The notes beneath the pieces were generated by a model that was given only the letters and a program-made list of their open reading frames with translations, was not told where the DNA came from and did no database searches. Below, one piece after another: positions 5,830-26,465 of a stretch of DNA of 57,092 nt. The DNA comes from Dehalococcoidales bacterium. GTDB taxonomy: Bacteria > Chloroflexota > Dehalococcoidia > Dehalococcoidales > CSSed11-197. Made by a program: the position numbers and the translations under genes. Location: the NCBI GenBank assembly GCA_028717385.1, contig JAQUNW010000005.1:1-57092 (forward strand), in the 5' to 3' direction. Positions within the stretch are counted from its first letter, which is position 1, and each line of letters starts with the position of its first letter.

Positions 5830-6693
5830 TTAAAGCACCTTTTTTAAAGCATCGGCAATAGCTGGTATCAGCTGGGCAATTTTTGTCGCCGGGGTTGGCC
5901 GTACAATTTCGCCCATGTGACGGTTAGCCTGAGCTGCCTTTAAGCAGGCTTCAGCCGGATCCATTCCGGACGATATCAATGCTGATACAATACCCGTAAT
6001 TGTATCTCCGGTGCCGCCAATGGGTTCAAGGGCAGGGATCAGCGGATCTTTAACTACTCCGTAGACTTCCCCTTTAACCATTATATGATCAATAGCGGCT
6101 TTCACCAATAGATAATCAGGGGCATTGCCACTGGCATACGCTTCTTTACCCAGCCGGGCAATTTCAGTATTGTCTACATTAAAGATAAAGTGCTGTACAT
6201 AAGCTGGATGAGCAGCCTCAGCATCGGCTATAAAGCTCAACTCGCCAGGATCCGGAGTGAACAAGTTGAATTTTGGTGCGAGTCCTATCGCTTTAGCATT
6301 GAGCAAGGCGCCAGCATCGGCAATGAAGAATGGCTTGGGAGTTGTTTCTTCTACTGCTTGTACCAGTTTTAAAAACGGCTCTCGTGTAGGTAAAAGATAA
6401 TGAAGAGTGAGTACAGTAGATCCAATAGATGAGATTTCCTGGGTTAAATATTCAAGTATCTTGATAGTTCCATCCCCCATGCCGGTATCACCATAGGTAA
6501 CCAGATGAGGCGGTTCGATACCTAGTGTCTGGCAGGTGGTAGCGGCTGCTGACGCCATGGCGGCAGTTCCCAAGGTGACGTACTTGCCTTCGAGGGCATA
6601 GTCGCCGATATCTAATCGGCCTTTCTGATACCTGCATGCACCCTGTGTCAAGGGAATACCATCAATCGGTATAGTTCCTGCGATAACTAACAT
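5830..6693 (-). CDS. YjeF_C / ribokinase-fold protein (NAD(P)HX-dehydratase-like carbohydrate kinase family)
   Basis: C-terminal motif IGGTGDTITGIVSALISSG (GGxGDxLxG type), FTPDPGEL (compare TPHPGE) and LLVKAAIDHIMVKG. Its ATG shares one base with the TGA of the upstream gene. Confidence 0.7.
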   Translation of the reverse strand: MLVIAGTIPIDGIPLTQGACRYQKGRLDIGDYALEGKYVTLGTAAMASAAATTCQTLGIEPPHLVTYGDTGMGDGTIKILEYLTQEISSIGSTVLTLHYLLPTREPFLKLVQAVEETTPKPFFIADAGALLNAKAIGLAPKFNLFTPDPGELSFIADAEAAHPAYVQHFIFNVDNTEIARLGKEAYASGNAPDYLLVKAAIDHIMVKGEVYGVVKDPLIPALEPIGGTGDTITGIVSALISSGMDPAEACLKAAQANRHMGEIVRPTPATKIAQLIPAIADALKKVL

Positions 6694-7232
6694 CAGATCT
6701 TGCTCCTTTCTTCCCTAAAGAGTTCGGCTGCCTTCTGATAGGCATGCTCCATGGTATAGGCGCAGATAGTCTTTCCCAGCTCCTTGGGGGAAGGCCCTTC
6801 CCCAATCACGGTGTCAATCAAGCTCAGACCGAGCAAGGGTACATCTGGTCAGCCGCCACCGGAGATGTTAACAATAACACCAGTACCTTTCCGGTAGGTC
6901 ACTTTCATATTCCCGCACCTTACCATTGTATAACCTGCATAGTCGGTCACCTTGATCAGCTGGGTAAGGTACACCGGGACCAACTGGGTGCCCTTTGGCA
7001 GGAACAATATATCCATAAAGAGGATGTTATTATTCTCAAGGATACGCTCTACTGCATCCACATCGTCAGCATTGATTTCCAGAGCCATATCGCAACCAGT
7101 GCGATATTCCGGAGGCGGCGCAACTTCATTTGATGAGTAGCCGGCATGCTCTAAAAAATGCTTACCACGCATGGCATAGTAAATGTAGTCGAATACTACC
7201 AGAGCTTTTTCCTTTTCAACTTCTTTGGTCAC
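6693..7232 (-). CDS. DUF3343 (Se/S-carrier-like) domain protein. Candidate selenoprotein of 179 aa, reading the in-frame TGA at 6851..6849 as Sec.
   Basis: GTG start at 7232 behind AAGGAGG. The N-terminal part fits the DUF3343 pattern (VVFDYIYYAMRGKHFLEHAG...PPPEYRTGCDMALEI). The ORF track stops at TGA (6849), but the frame stays open for 51 more codons to TGA 6695..6693, which overlaps the next ATG. Confidence 0.55.
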
Positions 7233-7261
7233 TTTTTCCTCCTTGGGGGAGATACTGTTGC

Positions 7262-8428
7262 CTAACCCGGCCAGTAGAAATCACCTGCACGGGAAAAAAT
7301 TGATACCAATAGCACTGTATACCAAACATATAGCGAAAGGGCGGTTGTAATTGCCAGAGCGATAAATGGTCCTCGTACCTTGAACTTTGTGTCTGTCCAA
7401 TAAAAATCGATTGCCTCTTCTGAACATGCTTCAACGCAACGACCACATTTAATGCATGAGCCTCCCTGGGGGTGTCCCTTGTCTACATCTTCCGGATTAA
7501 GAGCGAACATGCGGCAAGAGTTAACACAATCCAGGCATTTAACACAGCGTTCCTGGTTAATTTTTAAGCGAAATGGGCTGATGCGGTCGAGGAGGTTGAT
7601 AATCGTACCGGCAGGGCAAATGTAGCAAAACCATCGTCTTTTAGTTAAGATTGGTAATATAATTGCCATTATTCCAAGAATACCAATCACCAACCAGAAA
7701 GCTTTCAGCTTGAGCCATAAAACCGGGTAAAAAAGGTTTACCAGGGAAAAACCCAGAAATATTGAGAGCAACACCAGCGCCAAAACCAGGCTGTAACGTA
7801 ATATATTTATCCATGGCTTTAAAGGTCCATAATAAAATTTATTATTAATGCCAATCTTCTGCCTGAGAAAATCCAACCGCACAAATTCCCGTCTGCCTGA
7901 TGCAGCTGCTTCTGGCAGGCCGCCAAGCGGGCAAATCCATCCGCAATAAGCTCTGCCAAACAAGAGGAGAATGATTGCGTAGGGCACCATGAATAGGGCG
8001 AAAGTGGCCAAGTTTCCTGGTATTTGAGTTTGCCAGGCATTAACCGAAGGCAAGAATTCAGCGCCTCCCCAGAAGATGGCTGGCAAAACCAATGGGTGGG
8101 GGAATTGCAAGGTTCCGATACCGCCGGTACCCGGAAAATAGTACCCTGGATTAAAATGATCCACCCATTGCATGAACTGGGTTGGGCCCCAGAGCATGAT
8201 CAGCCCCGCTAAACTCAGGGCAATAACCGTAGCAAGTGCAATGAAAAAAGACCGCCTGAGGCGTTCAATCTTGCCTGACTTCAGGATATAGAATATCATC
8301 AAGCCGCTGATTAATCCCAGCGCTACACCCAATATTGGGTAAGGTTTGGAGTACCACCAGCCGTTGAAGGCTGCGGTAACAAGCCCCATCAACAAAGCCA
8401 GCCGGAACGGGCTTAACTTCATTGTCAT
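7262..8428 (-). CDS. NapH/MauN-like integral-membrane 4Fe-4S polyferredoxin
   Basis: Multiple TM segments plus CGWICPLGG, CYICPAG, CVKCLDCVNSC and CIKCGRCVEAC. Confidence 0.8.
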   Translation of the reverse strand: MTMKLSPFRLALLMGLVTAAFNGWWYSKPYPILGVALGLISGLMIFYILKSGKIERLRRSFFIALATVIALSLAGLIMLWGPTQFMQWVDHFNPGYYFPGTGGIGTLQFPHPLVLPAIFWGGAEFLPSVNAWQTQIPGNLATFALFMVPYAIILLLFGRAYCGWICPLGGLPEAAASGRREFVRLDFLRQKIGINNKFYYGPLKPWINILRYSLVLALVLLSIFLGFSLVNLFYPVLWLKLKAFWLVIGILGIMAIILPILTKRRWFCYICPAGTIINLLDRISPFRLKINQERCVKCLDCVNSCRMFALNPEDVDKGHPQGGSCIKCGRCVEACSEEAIDFYWTDTKFKVRGPFIALAITTALSLYVWYTVLLVSIFSRAGDFYWPG

Positions 8429-9618
8429 CCTATTCGTCCACCGATGATGTCGATAAAGTTATTTAATCTTTCTTGAATATCACTCGTGTTTGTGTAAACG
8501 AGAGAAGAGTCGATGAATACTGGAGGTATTGCCAACTCATGATAAAGAGCATCACCAAGAGCTTCGTAAGACTTCATCAACGGTTTGTATTCCTGTGGCC
8601 CATAAAAAACGAGACCATGTACATTGTATCTCCTTGCAGTAGTGATCATGCGGTATTTCTGGGCGGTATAATCTTCCATATACAGACAGGGAGCATTATA
8701 CAAATAGCGCTCAACCAGGTAATCGAAAGGCGCTGGGAAACCAAAAACTGGCACTCTTTTTCTCAGGAGCATTGATCCCGAACAGCTATAATCGGTTACA
8801 ATAACTGCATTTGAGCCTTTTACCAGTTCAAGCAGTTCGTTGCTAATAAACCCGGCAAGCATAAGACGCGGTTTGGCATCAACAGGCAATCCCATTAGAT
8901 TAATCTGGGCAAGCTTGTCCTGATGCTCCAGAAGGTTTCTTTTAAAAACTGGCCTTTCCAGGGAATACCCGGCTTGCTGCAGCTTGAACACATCTTGCCA
9001 TTCTACCGGTGATCTCCCGCGTATTGGGTATTCATATAATCCCCGGAGGAGTTCCTTTATCTTGTCACTTTGGGTGATAGCCTTGGAGAGGTTAATAATA
9101 TTAATCGGTTGTCTGTTAAATTGACCAAGGTTTTTTGCGAGCATCTTCAGGTTGTGGCGGAATTTAGCTGTGGCTTTATAATCGCTTCGGTAGCGGTTAA
9201 CACGTGGCAGTTCCAGAGTAAATATTGATTGATCAAAACACTCTTTAAAACAATGCGTGGCTGTGTAGCTATCGTTTTCTGGACAAGTAATAATAAGGCT
9301 GTCAAGCACGTTCAAATCGAGTCCTTCAGCAAGGTTAGTCTTATGTTGGACGCTGCAGGCCTGCCAGCATTTGCCAGGTTTTTCTCCAATAGAACTGCCG
9401 GTTGGAATCAATGGCAAACGTAATGGGAACATGCCTGAAGCCAGAATAAGCTCTTCAGGTACCAGCGGGCAGAAATACCCGGTGACTTTTAATCCTAACT
9501 GTCTGGCATGCTGTATATTGTTCAGGATGTTATCGAAATCTTTTGATTTGAAGCCTTGCCGCCTGTGTATTTTATTTGCATTCATGATTACTGCAGGATT
9601 GTCGTCGTTCTTTGCCAC
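8425..9618 (-). CDS. 2-hydroxyacyl-CoA dehydratase / BcrC-BadD (HgdB-like) family Fe-S protein
   Basis: Contains VTGYFCPLVPEELILASGMFPLRL, typical of the family. The proposed GTG start at 9618 overlaps the upstream TAG (TAGTG). The ORF track ATG at 9651 would overlap the upstream gene by 34 nt. Confidence 0.7.
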   Translation of the reverse strand: MAKNDDNPAVIMNANKIHRRQGFKSKDFDNILNNIQHARQLGLKVTGYFCPLVPEELILASGMFPLRLPLIPTGSSIGEKPGKCWQACSVQHKTNLAEGLDLNVLDSLIITCPENDSYTATHCFKECFDQSIFTLELPRVNRYRSDYKATAKFRHNLKMLAKNLGQFNRQPINIINLSKAITQSDKIKELLRGLYEYPIRGRSPVEWQDVFKLQQAGYSLERPVFKRNLLEHQDKLAQINLMGLPVDAKPRLMLAGFISNELLELVKGSNAVIVTDYSCSGSMLLRKRVPVFGFPAPFDYLVERYLYNAPCLYMEDYTAQKYRMITTARRYNVHGLVFYGPQEYKPLMKSYEALGDALYHELAIPPVFIDSSLVYTNTSDIQERLNNFIDIIGGRIG

Positions 9619-10055
9619 TACCCCGTAGTCCTCAATAGCAGGTCCAGCCATTTGATGGTAACGATATTAAAGTAAACTATCCCAAGGTAGAAACCCGCTA
9701 AATAAAGCAGGGCGGATTGTCTGCCTTCGGCCGCCATGACGTGTTGTCTGAAAGGGCAACCTTCAGCAAAAACTGAGAAAAAGCCCATTCCCAATGAGCC
9801 GATTATACCGGCGATCAGGATTCCGGGGGAAGTAAAATCAAAACCAAGGGGGAAATTGGTAATCTCTCCCCCTATAAAATAGAAGAAAGTATATCCAACT
9901 GCGCCGCCGGCAATTAAACCGATTAATCCCTTTAAGCGGTAAGAGTCTTTTAGCATAATGAAATCTCGGATTCCGCTAATCGTACAGAATTTTGAACGTT
10001 GCCCAAGATAACCAATAACTATACCAAGTACCAGAGTTGCAATAGAAGCGATCAT
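9618..10055 (-). CDS. YeeE/YedE family (sulfur/selenium transport domain) membrane protein, C-terminal half
   Basis: Polytopic 145-aa protein with SKFCTISGIRD and AEGCPFRQH motifs. It overlaps the preceding half by 4 nt. Confidence 0.75.
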   Translation of the reverse strand: MIASIATLVLGIVIGYLGQRSKFCTISGIRDFIMLKDSYRLKGLIGLIAGGAVGYTFFYFIGGEITNFPLGFDFTSPGILIAGIIGSLGMGFFSVFAEGCPFRQHVMAAEGRQSALLYLAGFYLGIVYFNIVTIKWLDLLLRTTG

Positions 10056-10546
10056 TGAGGGACTCCTTTCTTGGCTTTAAAGCGAATATAGATAATTGCC
10101 AGCACTACCCCGATCGCAATAGAGGCAAGAGCTATCAGTGCGGTTCCTGAACCGTAGGATACAAGTAAGGCAGTTCTGATTGGGCAGGACCCCCATAACA
10201 AGCCCAAATTAGCAACCAGAAAGCCAAAAATAATGGCAAGAAACCTTTTTCTCACCGGGCCCGGCTGGAATGCGAATTCTTTCTTGCGTCTGGCTGCTAT
10301 AAAGGAGCCAATAAAAACGCCTGCCACAGTGAGCACTGGATATACGATAAAAGCATCTCTTATTGGCCAGTTGGTGCCAATCACTCGGTTAGTAAGCCAA
10401 GCAAAAAGGTCGTTGGGATGGCCGATAAAACTGATACCATATGCCTCGGGTGGTTGTACCTTGAAATAGGCCTGTACCAGGGCAGCCCCGAGTCCCATGA
10501 TAACGCCGATTATAAATACTCTGTAAGAGCTTATTTTCAACTTCAT
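10052..10546 (-). CDS. YeeE/YedE family membrane protein, N-terminal half
   Basis: Polytopic 164-aa protein with the WGSCPIRT motif. Together with 9618..10055 it makes a split transporter. Confidence 0.75.
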   Translation of the reverse strand: MKLKISSYRVFIIGVIMGLGAALVQAYFKVQPPEAYGISFIGHPNDLFAWLTNRVIGTNWPIRDAFIVYPVLTVAGVFIGSFIAARRKKEFAFQPGPVRKRFLAIIFGFLVANLGLLWGSCPIRTALLVSYGSGTALIALASIAIGVVLAIIYIRFKAKKGVPQ

Positions 10547-10547
10547 A

Positions 10548-11111
10548 TTAAACTAACCTCAGCCAGGTAGGGAAAGGAACTTTTGCCTTTTCCCCATGGA
10601 ATGGGCAAGGATAACTGGTGGCTAGTTTGGCATCGAGTTGATGAGAACGCCCACCAAAGAACTCCAGGGTTACCCCTTCGAAGTTTACCCGTTTTTCAAA
10701 TGTGAGGGTTGTCTTTGCTGGTACTTCTACAAACCATGGATAAGATAATAGAGTCTTGCCAGTTACCTCTACCCAAACTTCCTCGTCATCAACTTCGATT
10801 TGCATCATATATGATTCGTCAGGGTCATGAAAGGTGACTAATACTACTCCCCAGGATTCTGTATCCGTCCAATTCTCCAGGGTTAGTTTGACATCATAGG
10901 TGTACCTTTCAAAATCCCAACCGCAATCCATGCCAAGTTCATAATGAGAGACCATGTCGGATTCGAGAGATACTACTTCTATCCCGAGCACTCCTGTAAT
11001 CCGTCCAGCGCCGTCACATGCAGGGCAGGGGACCTCGACGAAGGTAACTGCGGTTAACAGAACTAACCCGATGATGAAGTAGGTGTAAGCGTTGAATAAT
11101 TTGTTTTTCAC
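10548..11111 (-). CDS. membrane-anchored hypothetical protein with split Zn-ribbon-like Cys motifs
   Basis: GTG start behind AAAGGAG. One N-terminal TM helix, then CPACDGAG (DnaJ-type CxxCxGxG) and a C-terminal CPFHG. Confidence 0.6.
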   Translation of the reverse strand: MKNKLFNAYTYFIIGLVLLTAVTFVEVPCPACDGAGRITGVLGIEVVSLESDMVSHYELGMDCGWDFERYTYDVKLTLENWTDTESWGVVLVTFHDPDESYMMQIEVDDEEVWVEVTGKTLLSYPWFVEVPAKTTLTFEKRVNFEGVTLEFFGGRSHQLDAKLATSYPCPFHGEKAKVPFPTWLRLV

Positions 11112-11132
11112 GATACGCTACACTCCTTTCGG

Positions 11133-11168
11133 GGCAGAGGCGAGGATCAAATGATACTCGCCTCTGCC
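11133..11168 (-). other. perfect 12-bp stem / 12-nt loop hairpin between the Mo-hydroxylase genes and the downstream operon
   Basis: GGCAGAGGCGAG-gatcaaatgata-CTCGCCTCTGCC. No U-tract follows on the minus strand, and the RBS of the next gene follows directly. Confidence 0.45.
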
Positions 11169-11211
11169 ATTCCATCTAACCTGATTATATATTGTTGTTA
11201 GTGTTTCGTCT

Positions 11212-12165
11212 CTAGACTAGTGCAAGTAACGCTTTTTTCACCATTCCTTTGGTGATCTGGATCTTGTATTTGTTATGTGGTAGAGCGGTTGCGCCTTTGA
11301 CTGCTTCATCGCCGGCCGCAATGGCATTGGCTTCATTGATAGCCTTGCCTTTGATGAAATTTTCGGCATTGGTAGCACGCCAAGGTATAGGTGAAACACC
11401 GCCTAACACGATTTTAGCATCGCTAACATTTCCACCAGAAATAGTAGCAATGACAGCTACGCTGACCTCTGGGAAGTCGATAGCTTTCCGCCATGCCCAC
11501 TTCTTGTAGACTTGTTTGGTGCCTGCAGCTGGTGCGGGTACCTGTATTTCGGTAATAACTTCGTTGGTAGCCAGGGTATTAGCAAGTCCACCGTAAAGGT
11601 CAGCGATGGGAAATGAGCGTTGGTTGGTAACTATAGTTGCCCCTAAAGCTACCAATACCGGAGCGCAATCAGAAGGGCAGACTGCAAAACAGCCGCCTGC
11701 TCCCCACAAAGCGCTATGTTTTTTGTTGTTACCAGGAACCATATAGCACAGCAAGCCGCCTTTCCTGAGGCAATAAAACTCATTGTGCTCAGCTCTGTAG
11801 TACCAGCACCGTACTGCCTGACAAAGATTACCGGCAATGGTGCCCATATTTCTGAGCTGAGGAGTGCCTACTTTGTGTGCCGCTTCAGCCAACGCCGGAT
11901 ACTTTGAACTGACAATCGTCGACTCATATATTGCGGTGAGTCTGGTGAGGGCACCGATCTTGAGCGTTCCACTTTCTTCTTGTATGTACTCCAATCCCGG
12001 AATGGTCTTGATGTTTACCAGTTTGGTAGGAGGATTGGAATAGATCATGCCTTTCAGTGTGCATAAAATATCGGTTCCGCCGGCAATGATGGCTGAACCA
12101 GTGCCTAATGCCGAGACCGCTTCCTGGACTGACGTTGCATTGACATGCTGATTTATCTTATTCAT
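11212..12165 (-). CDS. molybdenum hydroxylase FAD-binding (medium) subunit, CoxM/XdhB-like
   Basis: 317 aa containing IAGGTDIL, NMGTIAGNL and the CO-dehydrogenase flavoprotein C-terminal region. Confidence 0.85.
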   Translation of the reverse strand: MNKINQHVNATSVQEAVSALGTGSAIIAGGTDILCTLKGMIYSNPPTKLVNIKTIPGLEYIQEESGTLKIGALTRLTAIYESTIVSSKYPALAEAAHKVGTPQLRNMGTIAGNLCQAVRCWYYRAEHNEFYCLRKGGLLCYMVPGNNKKHSALWGAGGCFAVCPSDCAPVLVALGATIVTNQRSFPIADLYGGLANTLATNEVITEIQVPAPAAGTKQVYKKWAWRKAIDFPEVSVAVIATISGGNVSDAKIVLGGVSPIPWRATNAENFIKGKAINEANAIAAGDEAVKGATALPHNKYKIQITKGMVKKALLALV

Positions 12166-12177
12166 TTCGTATTCTCC

Positions 12178-14451
12178 TTAAGCCTTTCCCAAGTGTTTCA
12201 GAATGCGGTCGGGACTCATCGGTCGAGTGAATTTAGAGAAATCGCCACCGATGGCATTGTGTATAGCCATCAACAAGGCTGCGAAGCCTGACCCATTGGC
12301 TGCCGGTTCACCCAGACCGCTCATACCGAAAGGACCGGTAGCATTGACGCTTTCGGTTAACCAGCCACCATGAACATCATCATTGATATCCATGGCAGTG
12401 TGAGCTTTCATATCTATATGGGTTTGGTCGAGCAGGGCACCTCTTTGAGGATCATGGTGAACATCCCAGAGAAGGCCTTTTCCACAGGCTGTCCATAGGC
12501 TCGAGCCGATCTGACCTCCGGCAGTAACCGGATCAATAACTCGGCCGCAATCAGTAGTATGGGCGTGCGCCAATATTTCTACATCCCCGGTATCGGGGTC
12601 AACCGCGACTTCAAAAGCACTGGCTACGCCCTGGCGATGGAAAGCAGGAGTACCGATCGGTTTGCCCTGGAATGGCCTTCTCAGTACTTCTGCGAAACTT
12701 TTTCCCACACCGATGATAGGTTTAGATATTCTGGCCATGACTTCAGCATGGGTGAGAGATTTGGACTGGTCGGTCTTAACAAAGATCTTGCCATCCCTGG
12801 CATGAAGGTCATCGACAGCAACGCCCAGTTGGTTGGCAGCATGAGCAAACAGCTGCTCGCGGATATCCAGAGCTGCCATCAGAGAGGCGGAGCCGTTACT
12901 GGAAGCACCCTGGCTACCAGCTTGCATGCCGCCATCTGGAGCCTGATCATTAGTACCGTAGGACGAACAGTAGACCGCTTCGAACGGAAGCCCAAGAGCT
13001 TCAGCAATGATATTAGCCTGAGTTACTGAGTTGGTACCGTTCTGGTTGTTACTCTGGCCGGTGACGAAGTTACAGGTGCCATCGGTGTTCATATAGATGA
13101 CCACTCCACGTCCAGCGCCCGAATGGCCATGCCGATCGTTGAAGCAGGCAATGCCTACACCGTGGAGCCGTCCGTCTGGTAGAGTTCTGGTACCGGGAGC
13201 ATGATATTTTTGTTCATAGTTTATCTTTTCGTTTACAGCTTCAAGGCACATGCGGGTAGAAGCGCAAGTCATTGGCCGGCCGTTATCTTGATTGAGCATA
13301 TCGTCGGTGATGGTGACCTTGCGCAGGTATTCCAGAGGGGTCATACCAATAGCATCAGCCATAGCGTTAAGTGCTACGCATAGAGTGAAAGCTGCTTCGG
13401 GGTGCATCAGGCAGCGATGTCCGGCTCCAAAGCCGGTATTAGTGGCTACGCCGTAAGTTTCCTGGGTAACGTTAGGTAGGATATAGCTGCAGTCAATATT
13501 TTCCCAACCATTACCGGCAGCAGCGTTGAAGCCGCCGTGGCAGTACCATTTTTGCTGCATAGCGGTCATCGTCCCATCCCTTTTACCGCCGAGCTTAGTG
13601 ATACCCTTCGGGGAATAGTGGTTGCGGCGTCGGATGGAGTGTAATCTTCTGGTACGCGAAATGGCTACTGGAACACCTGCTTTCTTGGAAAGCAGGGCAC
13701 ACAGAGAAGGTTCGCAGGTTTGCCCGCCACCGCCAAGGCCGCCGACACCGCTGGTTTGGCGGATATGGCAACGGCTCTGGTTAACTCCTAACTGAGAGGC
13801 GTATGTGCGGTTCTGGGCATGAGGATTCTGACCCTGGTCGTATCCGTATACATGCTCGCCTTCCCACCAGGCAACACCGGTAACCGGCTCAATAGTATTT
13901 TGAGTGTGAGGTCTGAGGAAGGGGGTTTCAACTTCAATGGTTACCTCGGCTTCTTCAAATCCTGCCTCTATATCACCACGAGAGTTACGTGCCGGGTTAG
14001 CCTGGACGTTGCTGTCAGGGAAAGTACCTGCCAGGGTAGAGCCGGGCTGCCAGGCTTCATCGGGATCGAGAACGAAAGGTAATTCCTCGTATTCAACTTC
14101 AATCAACTCAACTGCACGCTCGGCGATAAAGGGATCGGTAGCAGCGACTGCTGCAATTTCCCAGCCCCACACCAGCACTTCATCCGTCTTGTACTGGGGA
14201 TTTTCCTGCATTGTGATTACAGCTTTAACACCTTCTAGTTCTTCAGCCTTGGAGGTATTGATGCTTTTAACTTTGCAGTGGGCATGGGGGCAGCCAAGGA
14301 TGGCCGCAAAGAGTTTCTTGCCCGGGAAATAATCGTAAGGGAACATATACCTACCGGTTACAATTGAAGGTCCTTCATAAGCACGGTGAGGCTTGCCGAC
14401 TACGGCTAAATCCGTACCAAATTCAAAATCTATGGGTAATGATATCGCCAT
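12178..14451 (-). CDS. molybdopterin-binding (large) subunit of a xanthine dehydrogenase / aldehyde oxidase family enzyme
   Basis: 757 aa with the a/b-hammerhead N-terminal region and MoCo-binding domains (GPFGMSGLGEPAANGS near the C-terminus). Confidence 0.9.
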   Translation of the reverse strand: MAISLPIDFEFGTDLAVVGKPHRAYEGPSIVTGRYMFPYDYFPGKKLFAAILGCPHAHCKVKSINTSKAEELEGVKAVITMQENPQYKTDEVLVWGWEIAAVAATDPFIAERAVELIEVEYEELPFVLDPDEAWQPGSTLAGTFPDSNVQANPARNSRGDIEAGFEEAEVTIEVETPFLRPHTQNTIEPVTGVAWWEGEHVYGYDQGQNPHAQNRTYASQLGVNQSRCHIRQTSGVGGLGGGGQTCEPSLCALLSKKAGVPVAISRTRRLHSIRRRNHYSPKGITKLGGKRDGTMTAMQQKWYCHGGFNAAAGNGWENIDCSYILPNVTQETYGVATNTGFGAGHRCLMHPEAAFTLCVALNAMADAIGMTPLEYLRKVTITDDMLNQDNGRPMTCASTRMCLEAVNEKINYEQKYHAPGTRTLPDGRLHGVGIACFNDRHGHSGAGRGVVIYMNTDGTCNFVTGQSNNQNGTNSVTQANIIAEALGLPFEAVYCSSYGTNDQAPDGGMQAGSQGASSNGSASLMAALDIREQLFAHAANQLGVAVDDLHARDGKIFVKTDQSKSLTHAEVMARISKPIIGVGKSFAEVLRRPFQGKPIGTPAFHRQGVASAFEVAVDPDTGDVEILAHAHTTDCGRVIDPVTAGGQIGSSLWTACGKGLLWDVHHDPQRGALLDQTHIDMKAHTAMDINDDVHGGWLTESVNATGPFGMSGLGEPAANGSGFAALLMAIHNAIGGDFSKFTRPMSPDRILKHLGKA

Positions 14452-14453
14452 TG

Positions 14454-15281
14454 CTAGCTACCTCCAGCGACAATAGTGTCAATAATGCGAGTATAATCGA
14501 TGCAGAAGCATAAGTTCCCGGATAGGGCTTCCCTTGCTTGTGCACGAGTGGGTTTGGGGGTCTTTTTGTAAAGAGCAACTGTTGTCATGATATTGCCGGG
14601 GGTGCAGTAGCCGCACTGGAAGGTAGATCTTTCCAGGAACAGCTTCTGTACTGGGTGCATTTCCGCACCGTTGGCAAGACCTTCGATGGTTAATACTTCA
14701 TGACCTTCAGCTTCACAGGCCAGTACCATACAGGCATATACCGGGGTACCGTCCATATGAACAGTACAGCTTCCGCATTCTCCGCGATCACAGCCTATCT
14801 TAGTGCCGGTAAGCCCCAGTTTTTCCCTAAGGACGAATCCCAGCGACCAGTTAGGATCAACCACTATGGGGTAATCCTTGCCGTTGACTTTGAGGGTTAC
14901 CATACCTTCAATTGGTGCGATAGCCTCAAGGTGCTGGGCTTCGAGGTGGGCTTTAAGATCTGCCAGGGAAGAAAATTCCTGGTTATCGTAGGGGCAGAGA
15001 TACTTGGTAACCGGATCGCCTGCTTCGTGAGCTGAGTCAACATGAGATTGCAGCGCAGCAAACGTGTCAAACTCTATGCTGTCGTAGGGACAGACGAATT
15101 TGGCGACTGTGGTAGTTACTTTTACTGTATTGGTTGCCGTCTCGGTAGTGGTATCACCTTTGCAGGCTGCAAGCAGGGCAGACGAACCGATGGCGGTACC
15201 GCCAACGACAATGCCGGTGTTCTTGATAAACTGTCTTCTGGATATCGAGCTATCTTTGGTTAACTCGTCTTTTTCGGGCAT
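14454..15281 (-). CDS. (2Fe-2S)-binding small subunit of the Mo hydroxylase, with a Tat signal, lipobox and two zinc-finger-like repeats
   Basis: SRRQFIK twin-arginine motif, LLAAC lipobox, Thr-rich linker, two C-x2-D-x3-F-x5-L-x2-H-x4-H repeats, then the CDRGECGSCTV and CGYCTPG 2Fe-2S motifs. Confidence 0.85.
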   Translation of the reverse strand: MPEKDELTKDSSISRRQFIKNTGIVVGGTAIGSSALLAACKGDTTTETATNTVKVTTTVAKFVCPYDSIEFDTFAALQSHVDSAHEAGDPVTKYLCPYDNQEFSSLADLKAHLEAQHLEAIAPIEGMVTLKVNGKDYPIVVDPNWSLGFVLREKLGLTGTKIGCDRGECGSCTVHMDGTPVYACMVLACEAEGHEVLTIEGLANGAEMHPVQKLFLERSTFQCGYCTPGNIMTTVALYKKTPKPTRAQAREALSGNLCFCIDYTRIIDTIVAGGS

Positions 15282-21459: not shown

Positions 21460-22452
21460 CTACTTCAGTACTTCCATAAGCTGCTCGCTTAATTTGGTTA
21501 CAACTTCTCCGTCATAATCCTCAATACTACCGGCGTCGCATAGCTTGGCCATCTCAGGATCGATTGGAATCTGCGCCAAAAGGGGTGCATTGGCTGCTTT
21601 TGCCATTTGTTCACCGCGGCTTTTTCCGAAGATTTCTATCTTCTTGTCGATTTCTGGTACATAGAGGTAGCTCATATTTTCAACTACGCCCAGCACTTTC
21701 TTTTCCATCTTATTAGCCATAGAAAGCGCCTTTCTGACTATCATATCTACCAGATCCTGCGGTGTATATACTACGATTACACCTGTAATCGGGAAGGATT
21801 GCATTACGGTTAAAGGGGCGTCCGCAGTTCCGGGTGGCAGGTCAATAATGAGGTAGTCCAGCTTGCCCCATAAAACGTCATTGCCAAACTGTTTGATGGC
21901 GCTGGCAATCAGGGGGCCTCTCCATATCACTGCTTCTCCTTCATCGGGAAGGATCAGGTTGATGGACATCATTCCGATGCCGGTTTTACTCATAACTGGC
22001 ATGATGCCACTTTCATTGCCGGTAGGGGAGAGGTTTACGCCAAACATTTTGGGCATGCTTGGTCCGGTTATATCGGCATCCAGTATACCAACCTCATATC
22101 CTGCTCTTTTTAGAGCTATTGCTACCAAGCCGGATACTAGCGATTTTCCAACTCCACCTTTGCCGCTCATGACAGCAATGATATTAGTGATCTGGTTAAG
22201 TTCCTGGGCTTTGACATCAGTATACTCAACCGTTACTGTGCCGGCTCCATCTATATCCCCAAGGGTTTTTATAACAGTGTTTTTGGTTATTTCTTCCATC
22301 ATGGGGGCAAGGCCAGTATTGGCAAGGTAAACCTTTATACCTTCATCCGAGATTATAATATCGCGCAGTAAATTGAGCTGCTCGATGGTACGCCTGGTAC
22401 CCATAATGGTGATTTCTTCCAGGGCTTTGGTGACTGTTTCCTTATCAACCAT
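21460..22452 (-). CDS. Mrp/NBP35 (ApbC-like) Fe-S cluster carrier ATPase with an N-terminal DUF59-like domain
   Basis: Contains VMSGKGGVGKS and IIDLPPGTAD. Confidence 0.9.
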   Translation of the reverse strand: MVDKETVTKALEEITIMGTRRTIEQLNLLRDIIISDEGIKVYLANTGLAPMMEEITKNTVIKTLGDIDGAGTVTVEYTDVKAQELNQITNIIAVMSGKGGVGKSLVSGLVAIALKRAGYEVGILDADITGPSMPKMFGVNLSPTGNESGIMPVMSKTGIGMMSINLILPDEGEAVIWRGPLIASAIKQFGNDVLWGKLDYLIIDLPPGTADAPLTVMQSFPITGVIVVYTPQDLVDMIVRKALSMANKMEKKVLGVVENMSYLYVPEIDKKIEIFGKSRGEQMAKAANAPLLAQIPIDPEMAKLCDAGSIEDYDGEVVTKLSEQLMEVLK

Positions 22453-22475
22453 TTATAATTCTCCTCCGGTGTTTA

Positions 22476-22841
22476 TTAGTGCTGGCAAGTGTGGCCTCCC
22501 CCGGAATGGTCGCAGGTATCCCCTCCTGTTTCCAGGGAGCCGTTTATATAATCCAGTACGGCTTTTTCAGGATTATCTTCGATTACTCCGGTTACGACGG
22601 TAATGTTTTGCGAAAGAAAGAGTTCTCTTGCGTGTGCACCCATTCCCCCGGCGAGAATAACATTAGCTCCTTTTTCTCCCAGCCATTTGGGTAACAGACC
22701 GGGCTGGTGAGGAGGCGGCACAGCCAGTTCTTTAGACAGTATATTTTTCTGTGATTCATCCACATCAAAAAGAGCAAACTGCTCACAATGACCGAAATGT
22801 GCCGATACTGCTCCACCGCTAATAGGTACTGCGTATTTCAT
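22476..22841 (-). CDS. NifB/NifX-family (dinitrogenase FeMo-cofactor-binding fold) protein
   Basis: Contains MKYAVPISGGAVSAHFGHCEQFALFDV and VILAGGMG, with a Cys/His-rich tail. Confidence 0.75.
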   Translation of the reverse strand: MKYAVPISGGAVSAHFGHCEQFALFDVDESQKNILSKELAVPPPHQPGLLPKWLGEKGANVILAGGMGAHARELFLSQNITVVTGVIEDNPEKAVLDYINGSLETGGDTCDHSGGGHTCQH

Positions 22842-22844
22842 GTT

Positions 22845-23714
22845 TTATTCCCCCTGTATATTATTTTCTATATTGATATAATGCCACAATTTAGTAATTT
22901 CTTGTGTTATCTTCCCATTAGTATATTCCAAAACAGGTTTTCCATGAACCATCGCCTCGGTTACCAATGTGTCAAAGGGGATTTTGGCTGCGACGGGAAT
23001 AGCGAGAGATCTGCAGTAAGCCTCGATTGATGAAGTATTACTTTCGTTTAAATCATACTTATTTATGCATACCACGGCTGGTACGCCAAAATGCTGGCAT
23101 ACCTGGATGATTCTTTTTAAATCATGCACACCGCTGAGTGTAGGTTCGGTTACCAGTAGGGCAATGTTTGCGCCCGCGAGTGAAGATATTACCGGGCAAC
23201 CTGTTCCTGGTGGTCCATCTATGATAATATAGTCTGCCTTTACCTCCTTAGCTATGTTTTTTGCCTGTCGTTTTACCTCAGCTACCAGCTTGCCAGAATT
23301 TTCCTGCCCTATACCCAGGCGTGCATGTACCAGCGCCCCATACCTTGAGTAAGAAACAAACCAGTACCCTGAAAAACTTGGCTGCATTGTTATTGCTTCA
23401 ACCGGACAGATATGGAAGCAAAAACCACACCCTTCACAGTTCAAAGGATCGATTATGAAATCAGTAATAGCATTGAAGCGGCATAGCTGAGAACAAAGGT
23501 TACATCTGGCACATTTATCCTTATTAATAAAAGCGACCTGCCCACCAGCGAATTCATGCTTTTCCTGGATATGGGGATCAAGCAGCAGGTCCAAATCAGC
23601 AGCGTCGACGTCACAATCTGCAAGTACCTTATTTTCTGCCAGCACAGCCAACGAGCCGACGATGCTGGTTTTGCCAGTGCCCCCTTTACCGCTAAGTACG
23701 ACTATTTCTTTCAC
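22845..23714 (-). CDS. MinD/ParA-type P-loop ATPase with an inserted 2x[4Fe-4S] ferredoxin domain
   Basis: VLSGKGGTGKTS, CARCNLCSQLC and CEGCGFCFHIC. I chose the GTG at 23714 because AGGAGA lies 6 nt upstream; the ORF track start is 23813. Confidence 0.8.
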   Translation of the reverse strand: MKEIVVLSGKGGTGKTSIVGSLAVLAENKVLADCDVDAADLDLLLDPHIQEKHEFAGGQVAFINKDKCARCNLCSQLCRFNAITDFIIDPLNCEGCGFCFHICPVEAITMQPSFSGYWFVSYSRYGALVHARLGIGQENSGKLVAEVKRQAKNIAKEVKADYIIIDGPPGTGCPVISSLAGANIALLVTEPTLSGVHDLKRIIQVCQHFGVPAVVCINKYDLNESNTSSIEAYCRSLAIPVAAKIPFDTLVTEAMVHGKPVLEYTNGKITQEITKLWHYINIENNIQGE

Positions 23715-24552
23715 TGGCAATCTCCTGAATTCTGCTAAATGCCTGTTTAAATTTTTCCTGATATTCCGGTAAGCCTTCGACCAGCATGATTCCTTCGGAA
23801 TAAAAACGGGCAATGTTTAAACTTAAAGGTATGGTTAGCAGTATGGGGATATTTTCTTGGTGACAATATTCTTCTACGTTAGAATAACCAATGCCTGAGC
23901 GGTTTAACACTAAGCCACAGGGAACGCTGAGCTGGGTTACGGTTTCAACTGCAAGTTTCAGGTCGTTTAAGCCAAATGGAGTTGGCTCAGTCACAAGCAG
24001 GCAGAAATCACTATCCTTGATAGCGGCAATCACAGGGCATGAGGTTCCCGGAGCTGCGTCTATAATGGCAATCTTTTTCTGGTCAATATGCTCCTTTACT
24101 TTCCTTACCACCGGTGTAGGCATGGTCTGGCCTATATCAAGTTTGCCCTGCACAAAACTGATATTACCGGCGGCGCCTGTTTCTATAATACCTATTTGAT
24201 TGGGTGTTTCGCTGATAGCTTGTCTTGGGCAAAGATAAGAACAGGCTCCACACCCATGGCAGAGTTCGGGAAAAGTAAGTACAGTATCTTTTATGGTTAC
24301 AACGGCTTTAAAGGCGCAAATTTCTGCGCATTTTCCGCAGTGATTGCATCGTTCCTCATTTATCAAAGGAGTCATGATAGAAACATAGTGTATATTGTTA
24401 ATAGTGGGCTTGAGGAAGATATGACTATTGGGCTCTTCTACATCTGCATCGAGCAATTGTACTTCGTAGTCATTTTTTATTGAAGCGGCAAGGCTGGTTG
24501 CTACCATTGTTTTGCCGGTTCCACCTTTACCGCTGGCAATAGAGATAATCAT
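23692..24552 (-). CDS. MinD/ParA-type P-loop ATPase with an inserted 2x[4Fe-4S] ferredoxin domain (paralog)
   Basis: Contains IASGKGGTGKT, CNHCGKCAEIC and CHGCGACSYLC. Confidence 0.8.
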   Translation of the reverse strand: MIISIASGKGGTGKTMVATSLAASIKNDYEVQLLDADVEEPNSHIFLKPTINNIHYVSIMTPLINEERCNHCGKCAEICAFKAVVTIKDTVLTFPELCHGCGACSYLCPRQAISETPNQIGIIETGAAGNISFVQGKLDIGQTMPTPVVRKVKEHIDQKKIAIIDAAPGTSCPVIAAIKDSDFCLLVTEPTPFGLNDLKLAVETVTQLSVPCGLVLNRSGIGYSNVEEYCHQENIPILLTIPLSLNIARFYSEGIMLVEGLPEYQEKFKQAFSRIQEIASERNSRT

Positions 24553-24597
24553 GTATATTAAGATACCTCTCAGTTAATCTATACTGGAAGAGCGCCC

Positions 24598-24981
24598 TCA
24601 GTCGTTTTCCCTGCCTCCACCTTTACCGAAATAGCCGCTTACGTTGGGATTGCGAGAAAGAGAAAAATTTCTGTTTTTATAATCCTCAATTGCCTTTCTT
24701 GCAGTCCCGGATGCCCCGGTAATAATACCTATACCGGCAGCAGTAAGAATTTTGTGTGCATTTGGGCCGCAGTTTCCGGTTATTACTACCTCAACTCCTT
24801 TTTGGGCAATCATTTGAGCGGTTGAGGTACCGGCTCCTTCACCTGCTGACTCGCCTGTATTATTAACCACCTCGAACTCCATAGTGTCGGGATTGGCGAT
24901 AAGAAATATTTCGCATCGGCCAAAGCGCGGATTAACTTCAGAATCAAGTGATGGATTGCTGGCAGAAATTGCAATTTTCAT
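24598..24981 (-). CDS. NifB/NifX-family protein (paralog)
   Basis: Contains MKIAISAS...NPRFGRCEIFLI and VVITGNCGPNA. Confidence 0.75.
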   Translation of the reverse strand: MKIAISASNPSLDSEVNPRFGRCEIFLIANPDTMEFEVVNNTGESAGEGAGTSTAQMIAQKGVEVVITGNCGPNAHKILTAAGIGIITGASGTARKAIEDYKNRNFSLSRNPNVSGYFGKGGGREND

Positions 24982-25000
24982 ATTTACACCTTAAATATAA

Positions 25001-25016
25001 TGAGCATATGCTCATA
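25001..25016. promoter_or_regulatory. 16-bp perfect palindrome ATGAGCATATGCTCAT in an AT-rich divergent intergenic region; candidate Fur/PerR-family operator
   Basis: I checked the perfect dyad by hand. It lies 20 nt upstream of the NifX-like gene start and about 125 nt upstream of the Fur-family gene. Confidence 0.45.
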
Positions 25017-25140
25017 TTAATAATATTCCTGCTAGTCTGGATGTGTCAAGAACTGGTGATATATGATAAAGTATTCTATTGGAACACTTGACTTGCAAAT
25101 GTCAAAGGTGTTTAATAATACTCTAGGAACTGTTACTGTT

Positions 25141-25536
25141 ATGATTACAAGAAACACAAGGCAAAAACAAGTTATTCTTAACATCCTCTCCAACACAACC
25201 AGCCATCCAACTGCAGACTGGATCTATGAGGAAGCCAGAAAAGTATTACCCAACGTAAGTAAGGGTACTGTATATCGCAACCTTAAGATTCTTAGTCAGT
25301 CGGGGCGAATTACCGAACTGAAAATCGATAAAGCTGCCCGCCGTTATGACGGTAATGGAAACAACCATTATCACCTCAAATGCGAAAATTGTAGCAATGT
25401 ATTCGACTTGGAGATTCCGGTCAGAAAAGAGCTCGACCAATGGGCTTCAGAAAATACCGGTACAGCAGTTAACGGGCACAATATTGAGTTTTTTGGGCTT
25501 TGCCGAGGGTGTCTGGCAAAAATAAGCCATCCTTAA
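25141..25536 (+). CDS. Fur family transcriptional regulator (PerR-like by context)
   Basis: Contains TRQKQVILNIL, TVYRNLKIL, HYHLKCENC and CRGC. Start chosen at the Met preceding TRNTRQK; the ORF track start is 25063. Confidence 0.85.
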   Translation: MITRNTRQKQVILNILSNTTSHPTADWIYEEARKVLPNVSKGTVYRNLKILSQSGRITELKIDKAARRYDGNGNNHYHLKCENCSNVFDLEIPVRKELDQWASENTGTAVNGHNIEFFGLCRGCLAKISHP

Positions 25537-25727
25537 TTTACGTTTTTTACTGACTTTAGATATGCAGGCTCTGGTCTGGCGCGTTCATCTGCCGGACTGA
25601 TTAAATATAGCCGGGAGGAATCTATATGGCAGAACCCACCGATGGATGTGTTTCTTCGGCAAAGGGTCCTATTTCAGAACCTGCTGCTGAGAATGTAAAA
25701 AGAGCGAAGGAGGAAACTACCAGGATT

Positions 25728-26336
25728 ATGACAGCACAAGTTGGCAAACCGGCACCGGATTTTGAGGCCGGTGCATATGTGGACGGCGGTTTCAAGAACA
25801 TCAAACTATCAGATTATAAAGGTAAATGGACAGTACTGTGTTTCTATCCAGGTGATTTTACATTTGTCTGACCTACTGAGCTTGCAGCAGTTGCTGCCAG
25901 GCAGGATGATCTGAAAGCCCTTGGTGTACAGGTGCTTTCTGTTAGCACAGATTCACGCTTCACCCACAAGATATGGCAAGCTGAAGAACTATCCAAAATG
26001 GTAGATGGTGGTTTCCCGTACCCGATGTTGTCTGACCAGGGTGGTCGTATCGGTACGATTTATGGTGTTTATGATGTAGATGCCGGAGTTAATATTCGAG
26101 GCCGGTTTATAATTGATCCGGATGGCATCATCCAAGCTATGGAAGTGCTGACTCCCACAGTGGGGCGCAATGTAGCTGAACTTATTCGCCAGGTAAAAGC
26201 TTATCAGCACACACGTAAAACCGGGGAAGTAATGCCATCTGAATGGCAGCCGGGTAAGCCTACTCTCAAACCATCGCCAGCGTTAGTTGGTAAGGTGTGG
26301 GAAGTGTGGAGGCCAGAAACTCCCGTACATGAATAA
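25728..26336 (+). CDS. prxU: selenocysteine-containing peroxiredoxin (AhpC/Prx1 family), with the TGA at 25869..25871 read as Sec
   Basis: ORFs 25626..25871 and 25932..26336 are in the same frame with no other stop between them. The join reads [16 protein letters not shown], so the TGA replaces the peroxidatic Cys of the universal FTFVCPTE motif. Confidence 0.85.
25880..25902 (+). promoter_or_regulatory. candidate bacterial SECIS hairpin
   Basis: GCTT-GCAGC-AGTT-GCTGC-(C)-AGGC begins 9 nt after the UGA and has G/U in the apical loop. Confidence 0.5.
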
Positions 26337-26465
26337 TTAGCGTAACAAAATAATCAACATACAAGCCGGGCTGCGTCTTTATTGCTCTATTAGTGCGAAG
26401 GTCGCCCGGCTTGCTAATACACATATCAAGGCTATATTTTCTGCTAAAAGGAAAAGGAGGCTAAA

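Follow-up and report, generated by a model that had tools for sequence, protein, structure and literature searches.

A long-form PrxU gene with an in-frame UGA, a covarying hairpin and a conserved N-terminal cysteine motif in a Dehalococcoidales bacterium

Peroxiredoxins containing selenocysteine (Sec) have been known since 2001, and the gene family to which they belong is already described and curated. Its founding member is the Sec-containing PrxU of Eubacterium acidaminophilum; this protein belongs to the short forms, with about 203 residues, and its entry classes it as a 1-Cys type. Here we analyse a gene of the same family, prxU, found in a DNA stretch of 57,092 nucleotides (nt) from a Dehalococcoidales bacterium (assembly GCA_028717385.1, contig JAQUNW010000005.1, positions 1-57,092, forward strand), the whole of which is called the window below. 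The gene occupies 25626..26336 on the forward strand and, as judged from comparison with its relatives, it is an intact gene for a Sec-containing peroxiredoxin of the AhpC/Prx1 type, in which a UGA codon takes the place of the codon for the peroxidatic cysteine.

Recent reviews count peroxiredoxins with Sec (PF00578, TxxU motif) as prokaryotic selenoproteins that have been verified by experiment, citing Sohling et al. 2001 (Biol Chem 382:979). The original prediction for this locus had named such an enzyme as already known from an amino-acid-fermenting anaerobe, and rightly so: it is the PrxU of E. acidaminophilum to which these reviews refer. Two further groups of described enzymes serve as references for the locus. 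In peroxiredoxins, the N-terminus is one of the five recognised positions for the resolving Cys (Poole and Nelson 2016). In the methionine sulfoxide reductases of the MsrB type, thioredoxin can recycle the Sec forms only if they possess a resolving Cys, as studied with the selenoprotein MsrB1 (Kim and Gladyshev 2005).

Translation of 25626..26336 gave one frame of 236 codons, Sec82 included, whose sole interruption is the TGA at 25869-25871 and which ends at the TAA at 26334-26336. The open reading frames (ORFs) 25626..25871, closed by that TGA, and 25932..26336 lie in the same frame, and they are, as had been proposed, a single gene split by ORF calling. The feature had also been given a start at 25728, which is an internal Met. 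We place the start at the ATG at 25626 because the N-terminus is conserved and because a ribosome-binding site, GGGAGGA, was read from the sequence at 25613..25619 (+), 6 nt ahead of this ATG. The 34 residues ahead of the Met at 25728 recur in conserved form among the relatives, and the curated NCBIfam equivalog NF040737 (peroxi_PrxU, "thioredoxin-dependent peroxiredoxin") extends over them. With Sec replaced by Cys in the query, this model matched residues 6-231 of the protein over profile positions 2-232 of 233, with a score of 375.7 bits where 270 is the cutoff (E = 9e-113); the N-terminal arm is therefore part of the model itself. Pfam AhpC-TSA (1e-37) and the C-terminal domain 1-cysPrx_C were likewise recognised once the stop had been replaced by Cys. 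Alignment to human Prx2 (1qmv; E = 1.6e-53) set the TGA on the peroxidatic Cys of FTFVCPTE, the very residue that the UGA had been predicted to replace. In addition, the AlphaFold2 model of a Cys-type homologue with 74% identity (mean predicted local distance difference test score, pLDDT, of 90.7) superposed on Prx2, Prx3 and AhpC with a target-normalised TM-score of about 0.9.

When one genome per species was scanned, the 80 closest loci yielded 81 genes with 68-89% identity, and TGA was found in all of them at the codon of Sec82, the peroxidatic position of the PxxxTxxU motif. These loci are spread over about ten phyla. The closest belong to the Dehalococcoidia, with L009 as the nearest relative (89% identity), and the remainder to Anaerolineae, Syntrophaceae, Syntrophorhabdaceae, Ignavibacteria, Actinomycetota, Nitrospirota, Planctomycetota, Acidobacteriota, Zixibacteria, Peptococcaceae and other groups. 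The ratio of nonsynonymous to synonymous substitution rates (dN/dS) against the four closest relatives (L009-L012) was 0.014-0.053 before the TGA and 0.016-0.052 after it, and reached at most 0.058 against L013. As the values are alike on both sides, the part that follows the TGA is under the same strong constraint at the protein level. In two Anaerolineaceae (L037 and L044, in both cases at 5864..5959) a tRNA-Sec with anticodon UCA sits some 40 nt ahead of prxU; the flanks of L037, when scanned, showed no sel protein gene beside it. In the window, TGA is the ordinary stop codon of 8 of the 35 annotated genes, including rseP and dxr at full profile length, and since TGA ends genes at their expected length the genetic code has not been reassigned. 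We infer from these comparisons that Sec is actually inserted at codon 82 in this organism, and the long-form PrxU clade, going by its codons, is overwhelmingly of the Sec type across many anaerobic phyla.

In the 120 protein clusters nearest to the window protein (61-83% identity) the peroxidatic position is annotated as Cys in 55 and as "W" in 64. The DNA of four of these W proteins was inspected and showed TGA at this codon each time; on short contigs, gene callers had taken it for Trp. Public metagenome gene calls thus give Trp for the Sec codon in those 64 clusters, and protein databases contain many peroxiredoxins with FTFVWPTE which are really selenoproteins. A separate observation concerns a deltaproteobacterial contig (L025), which carries two prxU copies about 5 kb apart (6247 and 11589), both with the TGA, the N-terminal motif described below and the hairpin. 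A search of the window for other genes with an in-frame TGA flanked by 45 or more codons each way left prxU as the only pair considered plausible, it and the 33 other pairs having been judged from their flanking peptides.

The UGA is followed by a bacterial selenocysteine insertion sequence (SECIS) hairpin at 25881..25900 (+), whose stem joins 25881-25888 to 25893-25900 around the apical loop AGUU (25889-25892). Seven of its eight pairs are formed, with five contiguous pairs and a U.C mismatch at 25883/25898. A hairpin written GCUUGCAGC-AGUU-GCUGC(C)AGGC at 25880..25902, which folded alone with -11.3 kcal/mol, had already been noticed after the UGA, and both its covariation and its agreement with published constraints on bacterial SECIS elements (bSECIS) mark it as a real SECIS. 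The agreement extends to all four constraints: an apical loop of 4 nt with G second and then U, an upper stem of at least 5 bp, a spacing of 17 nt between UGA and loop, and the energy, which for the window hairpin lies between -7.8 and -11.3 kcal/mol.

For the covariation analysis, 45 nt from the UGA onwards were aligned for 84 Sec-type genes, 81 of them distinct. In this alignment the register is fixed, columns 13-20 pairing with columns 25-32 around a four-base loop (the U of UGA being column 1). The loop is AGUU in 63 of the 81 sequences and GGUC in the other 18, with nothing else observed, so that the third positions of an Ala and a Val codon covary perfectly (A..U or G..C) around an invariant GU. 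Over the 81 distinct sequences 83.7% of the stem cells are paired. Changes on both sides were found in six of nine stem pairs, and compensated cells numbered 42, against 12.4 +/- 2.8 after shuffling, with none of 500 shuffles as high; slid registers all scored far below the true one. The window hairpin contributes a compensated A:U at 25886:25895, where most relatives have G:C. Because the hairpin lies within coding sequence, over the codons for L-A-A-V-A-A-R, the synonymous sites there are constrained by RNA structure.

As controls, 22 Cys-type genes (19 distinct) with the peptide DFTFVCPTEL-x-AVA were compared in the same region. Their loops were diverse (CGUG, GGUG, UGUU and others) and mostly 2-3 pairs were formed. 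The full hairpin was present in only three of the 19 distinct controls, L106, L107 and L110, all of them close PrxU-like genes that carry a PrxU-like motif. These three, which come from metagenome contigs, keep the complete hairpin UUGGCGGC-AGUU-GCCGCCAG after a TGC codon, and L107 and L110 also have the N-terminal Cys motif; their sequences suggest genes that have recently changed from Sec to Cys and retain a fossil SECIS.

The window protein contains only two cysteines, both ahead of Sec82. The first, Cys8 (codon TGT, 25647-25649), belongs to an 11-residue motif encoded at 25641..25673 (+) in the N-terminal arm of 34 residues, and is followed by a variable, low-complexity linker of about 25 residues. 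The family consensus of the motif is D-[GSQ]-C-V-x-P-A-[KR]-G-P-I. Cys8 was found in 81/81 of the genome relatives, 74-77 residues ahead of Sec in 76 of them, and its motif in all 43 long-form protein clusters, of Sec and Cys types alike. In two AlphaFold2 models of Cys-type homologues, both of them monomers, pLDDT was 82 and 72 over the motif but 58 and 40 over the linker, and a beta-bridge was seen at residues 14-15; the Cys8 motif is thus predicted to be ordered and docked and the linker disordered. Six Cys-type homologues (P0015, P0017, P0018, P0023, P0030 and P0034), one of which is named after the planctomycete Neorhodopirellula pilleata, have a signal peptide ahead of the N-terminal Cys motif, which suggests exported versions that keep it.

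The second cysteine, Cys72 (codon 25839..25841, +), stands 10 residues before Sec, where ordinary Prx2 has Phe, and was present in 81/81 genome relatives and in 63 of the 64 Sec-type clusters. The canonical C-terminal position of the resolving Cys is occupied by Met203 (codon 26232..26234, +), in the context GEVMPSEW against GEVCPAGW in Prx2. In the genome relatives this column holds Thr in 46, Met in 27, Leu in 3, Ile in 2 and Ala in 2, and in the 120 protein clusters Thr in 97, Ala in 8, Met in 7, Ile in 5, Leu in 3 and Cys in 1. The canonical resolving Cys has been lost clade-wide, in Sec and Cys forms alike, and its loss is not special to the window gene. Downstream of Sec there is no Cys at all in the window protein, nor in 75 of the 81 relatives. 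A few other members of the clade have a shifted C-terminal Cys, and a sister group of Cys type without the arm has a Cys3 (MTCR...) instead; the clade therefore repeatedly re-invents a second Cys.

These data bear on two statements of the original prediction. That the canonical resolving Cys is absent, with GEVMPSEW in its place, was borne out by the alignment to Prx2. The consequence drawn from it, a 1-Sec peroxiredoxin without a partner, is not supported as it was stated: the first 34 residues had been cut off, and since Cys8 and Cys72 are invariant, the absence of the canonical residue does not imply a 1-Sec enzyme.

The following course of events is proposed. The hairpin at 25881-25900 would recruit SelB with Sec-tRNA(Sec), so that the UGA at 25869-25871 would be read as Sec. 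The selenolate of Sec82 would attack H2O2 or an organic hydroperoxide and would be converted into a selenenic acid. By what we consider the most likely recycling route, Cys8 on its flexible N-terminal arm would attack this selenenic acid to give a selenenylsulfide, and thioredoxin would in turn reduce the Cys8-Sec82 bond, with Cys72 as a possible alternative or relay partner. The gene would probably be co-transcribed with the PerR-like regulator located upstream of it (see below) as a peroxide-stress unit, putatively under PerR control. That Cys8 may be the tethered resolving residue of long-form PrxU proteins, possibly relayed through Cys72 and reduced by thioredoxin, so that these would not be 1-Sec enzymes, is suggested by the invariance of the motif, its predicted order, the re-invention of a second Cys in the clade, the precedent of peroxiredoxins with an N-terminal resolving Cys and the analogy with MsrB. 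This assignment is tentative, its odds falling a little short of even.

Taken as one whole, from prxU and Sec82 inserted through the SECIS to the proposed recycling and the putative PerR unit, this reading has in our estimate a probability of about 0.9. Several results weigh against it. Profile scans of 40 of the larger ORFs of the 57-kb window, together with ARAGORN, did not detect selA, selB, selC or selD. Folded as a single sequence, the 81-nt region 25860-25940 was no better than its shuffles (z = -1.05), and its minimum-energy fold pairs the UGA region differently. A scan of the whole window at Rfam gathering thresholds returned no SECIS-type family, only RNase P, a T-box and two tRNAs. 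As single-sequence folding and Rfam were uninformative, the SECIS call rests on the comparative data. The Cys8 step has its own difficulties: Cys72 is more universal than Cys8 among the protein clusters, the literature yielded nothing specific on an N-terminal resolving Cys or arm in PrxU, and two short Sec forms (P0119 and P0084) have a stop codon just upstream and lack the arm. Genuine short Sec forms therefore exist, and the arm is not obligatory for a Sec-peroxiredoxin.

These short forms, whose sole Cys is the buried-strand Cys at -10, also favour the main alternative to the Cys8 step, a true 1-Sec peroxiredoxin in which an external thiol or redoxin would reduce the selenenic acid directly and Cys8 and Cys72 would serve structure, oligomerisation, metal or selenium handling, or regulation. 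The missing canonical resolving Cys agrees with it too, and peroxiredoxins without a resolving Cys occur in all six subfamilies (Poole and Nelson 2016). However, across 81/81 relatives the 11-residue motif of Cys8 varies little or not at all, and the long forms of Cys type retain it too, a pattern difficult to account for unless the motif serves catalysis or redox chemistry; MsrBs with Sec that lack a resolving Cys are not reducible by thioredoxin; and the N-terminal resolving Cys is an established type. We regard the 1-Sec enzyme as a real, if lesser, possibility.

Far less probable is a pseudogene, that is, a Cys-peroxiredoxin gene killed by a TGY-to-TGA nonsense mutation, of which the two ORFs would be the remnants. 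ORF calling alone does yield two fragments, and no genes of the Sec machinery were found in the window, but the same codon is TGA in 81 of 81 related genes spread over many phyla, the part after the TGA is under purifying selection as strong as that before it (dN/dS 0.016-0.058), the SECIS is conserved and covarying, and tRNA-Sec adjoins prxU in two relatives. Hardly credible at all is a sequencing error at 25871 or a code in which TGA means Trp or Gly, as might be thought from the W at the Sec position in 64 of the 120 closest database proteins, since these W residues go back to TGA codons that gene callers translated on short contigs, the same TGA is present in 80 independent assemblies, TGA ends 8 of the 35 annotated window genes at the expected length, and an enzyme with Trp or Gly as its peroxidatic residue would lose catalysis. 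Together, the TGA in 81/81 genes, the covarying SECIS, the low dN/dS, the use of TGA as a stop elsewhere in the window and the adjacency of tRNA-Sec in effect exclude a pseudogene, a sequencing error and a reassigned code.

Directly upstream of prxU and on the same strand lies a gene for a PerR-like regulator of the Fur family (25063..25536, +; Pfam FUR, 4.6e-25), whose best NCBIfam matches are PerR models, at scores below their cutoffs. A promoter scan of the 89-nt perR-prxU spacer gave no promoter-like site. The two genes have remained neighbours in L009-L012, the closest Dehalococcoidia loci, and adjoin each other in L040 and L049 too; the order perR, prxU, a DUF5661 gene, tRNA-Gly(UCC) and tRNA-Met is common to the window and the closest Dehalococcoidia loci. 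After the stop codon of prxU there is a long GC-rich stem-loop (26362..26413, +; RNA fold of -25.4 kcal/mol), terminator-like and without a T tract; it was not called by a terminator scan that requires a T run.

The divergent spacer between perR and the genes for NifB-like/ORP-type Fe-S cluster proteins contains at 25000..25015 a perfect 16-nt palindrome, ATGAGCATATGCTCAT, which is found exactly in L009, L011 and L012 despite their differing flanks and is by its sequence a candidate operator for PerR or another regulator. The ORP-type cluster itself, transcribed divergently from perR-prxU, covers 21460..24981 on the reverse strand. It comprises a Mrp/ApbC-like Fe-S carrier with a match to MrpORP (21460..22452), a separate small gene matching the C-terminal part of MrpORP (22476..22841), two MinD/ParA-Fer4 ATPases with overlapping ORFs (22845..23813 and 23692..24552) and a Nitro_FeMo-Co domain protein (24598..24981).

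Another cluster on the reverse strand (6849..15281) has possible links to selenium or sulfur. It contains genes for a PF11823 protein, annotated as putative Se/S carrier (6849..7232), a NapH-like ferredoxin (7262..8428), a double-cubane-like reductase (8425..9651), two half-size YeeE/YedE proteins of the "Sulf_transp" type (9618..10055 and 10052..10546), the first of which weakly matches seleno_YedE (66 bits against a cutoff of 200), and the three subunits of a molybdenum hydroxylase of the xanthine dehydrogenase family (11212..15281). The TGA of the Se/S-carrier gene (6849-6851) is followed by an open continuation of 51 codons, and it was taken as a normal stop. The Se/S-carrier-like gene and the halves of the YedE-family transporter, about 16-19 kb upstream of prxU, give weak and circumstantial support for the use of selenium.

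For annotation, the two ORFs should be joined and recorded as a selenoprotein gene at 25626..26336 whose codon 82 encodes Sec; pipelines relying on NF040737 can be expected to call prxU in one piece. The gene is also good comparative evidence that this Dehalococcoidia-like organism decodes UGA as Sec, which bears on other in-frame TGAs in the genome; on that comparative footing it is reasonable to treat it, as had been proposed, as an internal positive control for such decoding. About Sec-peroxiredoxins as such nothing new is learnt, the part that is not in the textbooks being the invariant N-terminal Cys motif, which bears on how a peroxiredoxin deprived of the usual resolving Cys recycles its selenenic acid. 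If the proposal for Cys8 were true, the long forms would represent the Sec-peroxiredoxin counterpart of the solution adopted by MsrB1, and an undescribed variant of the Prx1/AhpC class with an N-terminal arm.

Finally, the window protein can be placed among the known systems. It resembles the PrxU family typified by E. acidaminophilum in its AhpC/Prx1 fold, its peroxidatic Sec (TxxU) and its lack of a C-terminal resolving Cys, and differs from the short forms of that family, such as P0119 and P0084, which are devoid of an arm, in being a long form with a Cys8 arm. With typical 2-Cys peroxiredoxins (human Prx2, 1QMV; Salmonella AhpC, 4MA9) it shares the fold, the PxxxTxxC/U motif, the conserved Arg and the C-terminal extension. 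In contrast to them, it has Sec for the peroxidatic Cys, Met203 for the resolving Cys, Cys for Phe at -10 and an extra N-terminal arm of 34 residues bearing Cys8; the resolving Cys in the C-terminal arm (GEVCPxxW), by which the typical 2-Cys class is recognised, is absent from it. The Nt-type peroxiredoxins offer a further, tentative parallel, as they combine a conserved Cys right at the N-terminus, beyond the core fold, with the lack of a C-terminal resolving Cys; unlike theirs, the Cys of the window protein sits on a long flexible linker and inside a specific 11-residue motif. The last comparison, a functional analogy only, is with the mammalian selenoprotein MsrB1, whose fold and substrate are unrelated and in which a catalytic Sec and a resolving Cys form a selenenylsulfide that is reduced by thioredoxin (Kim and Gladyshev 2005).

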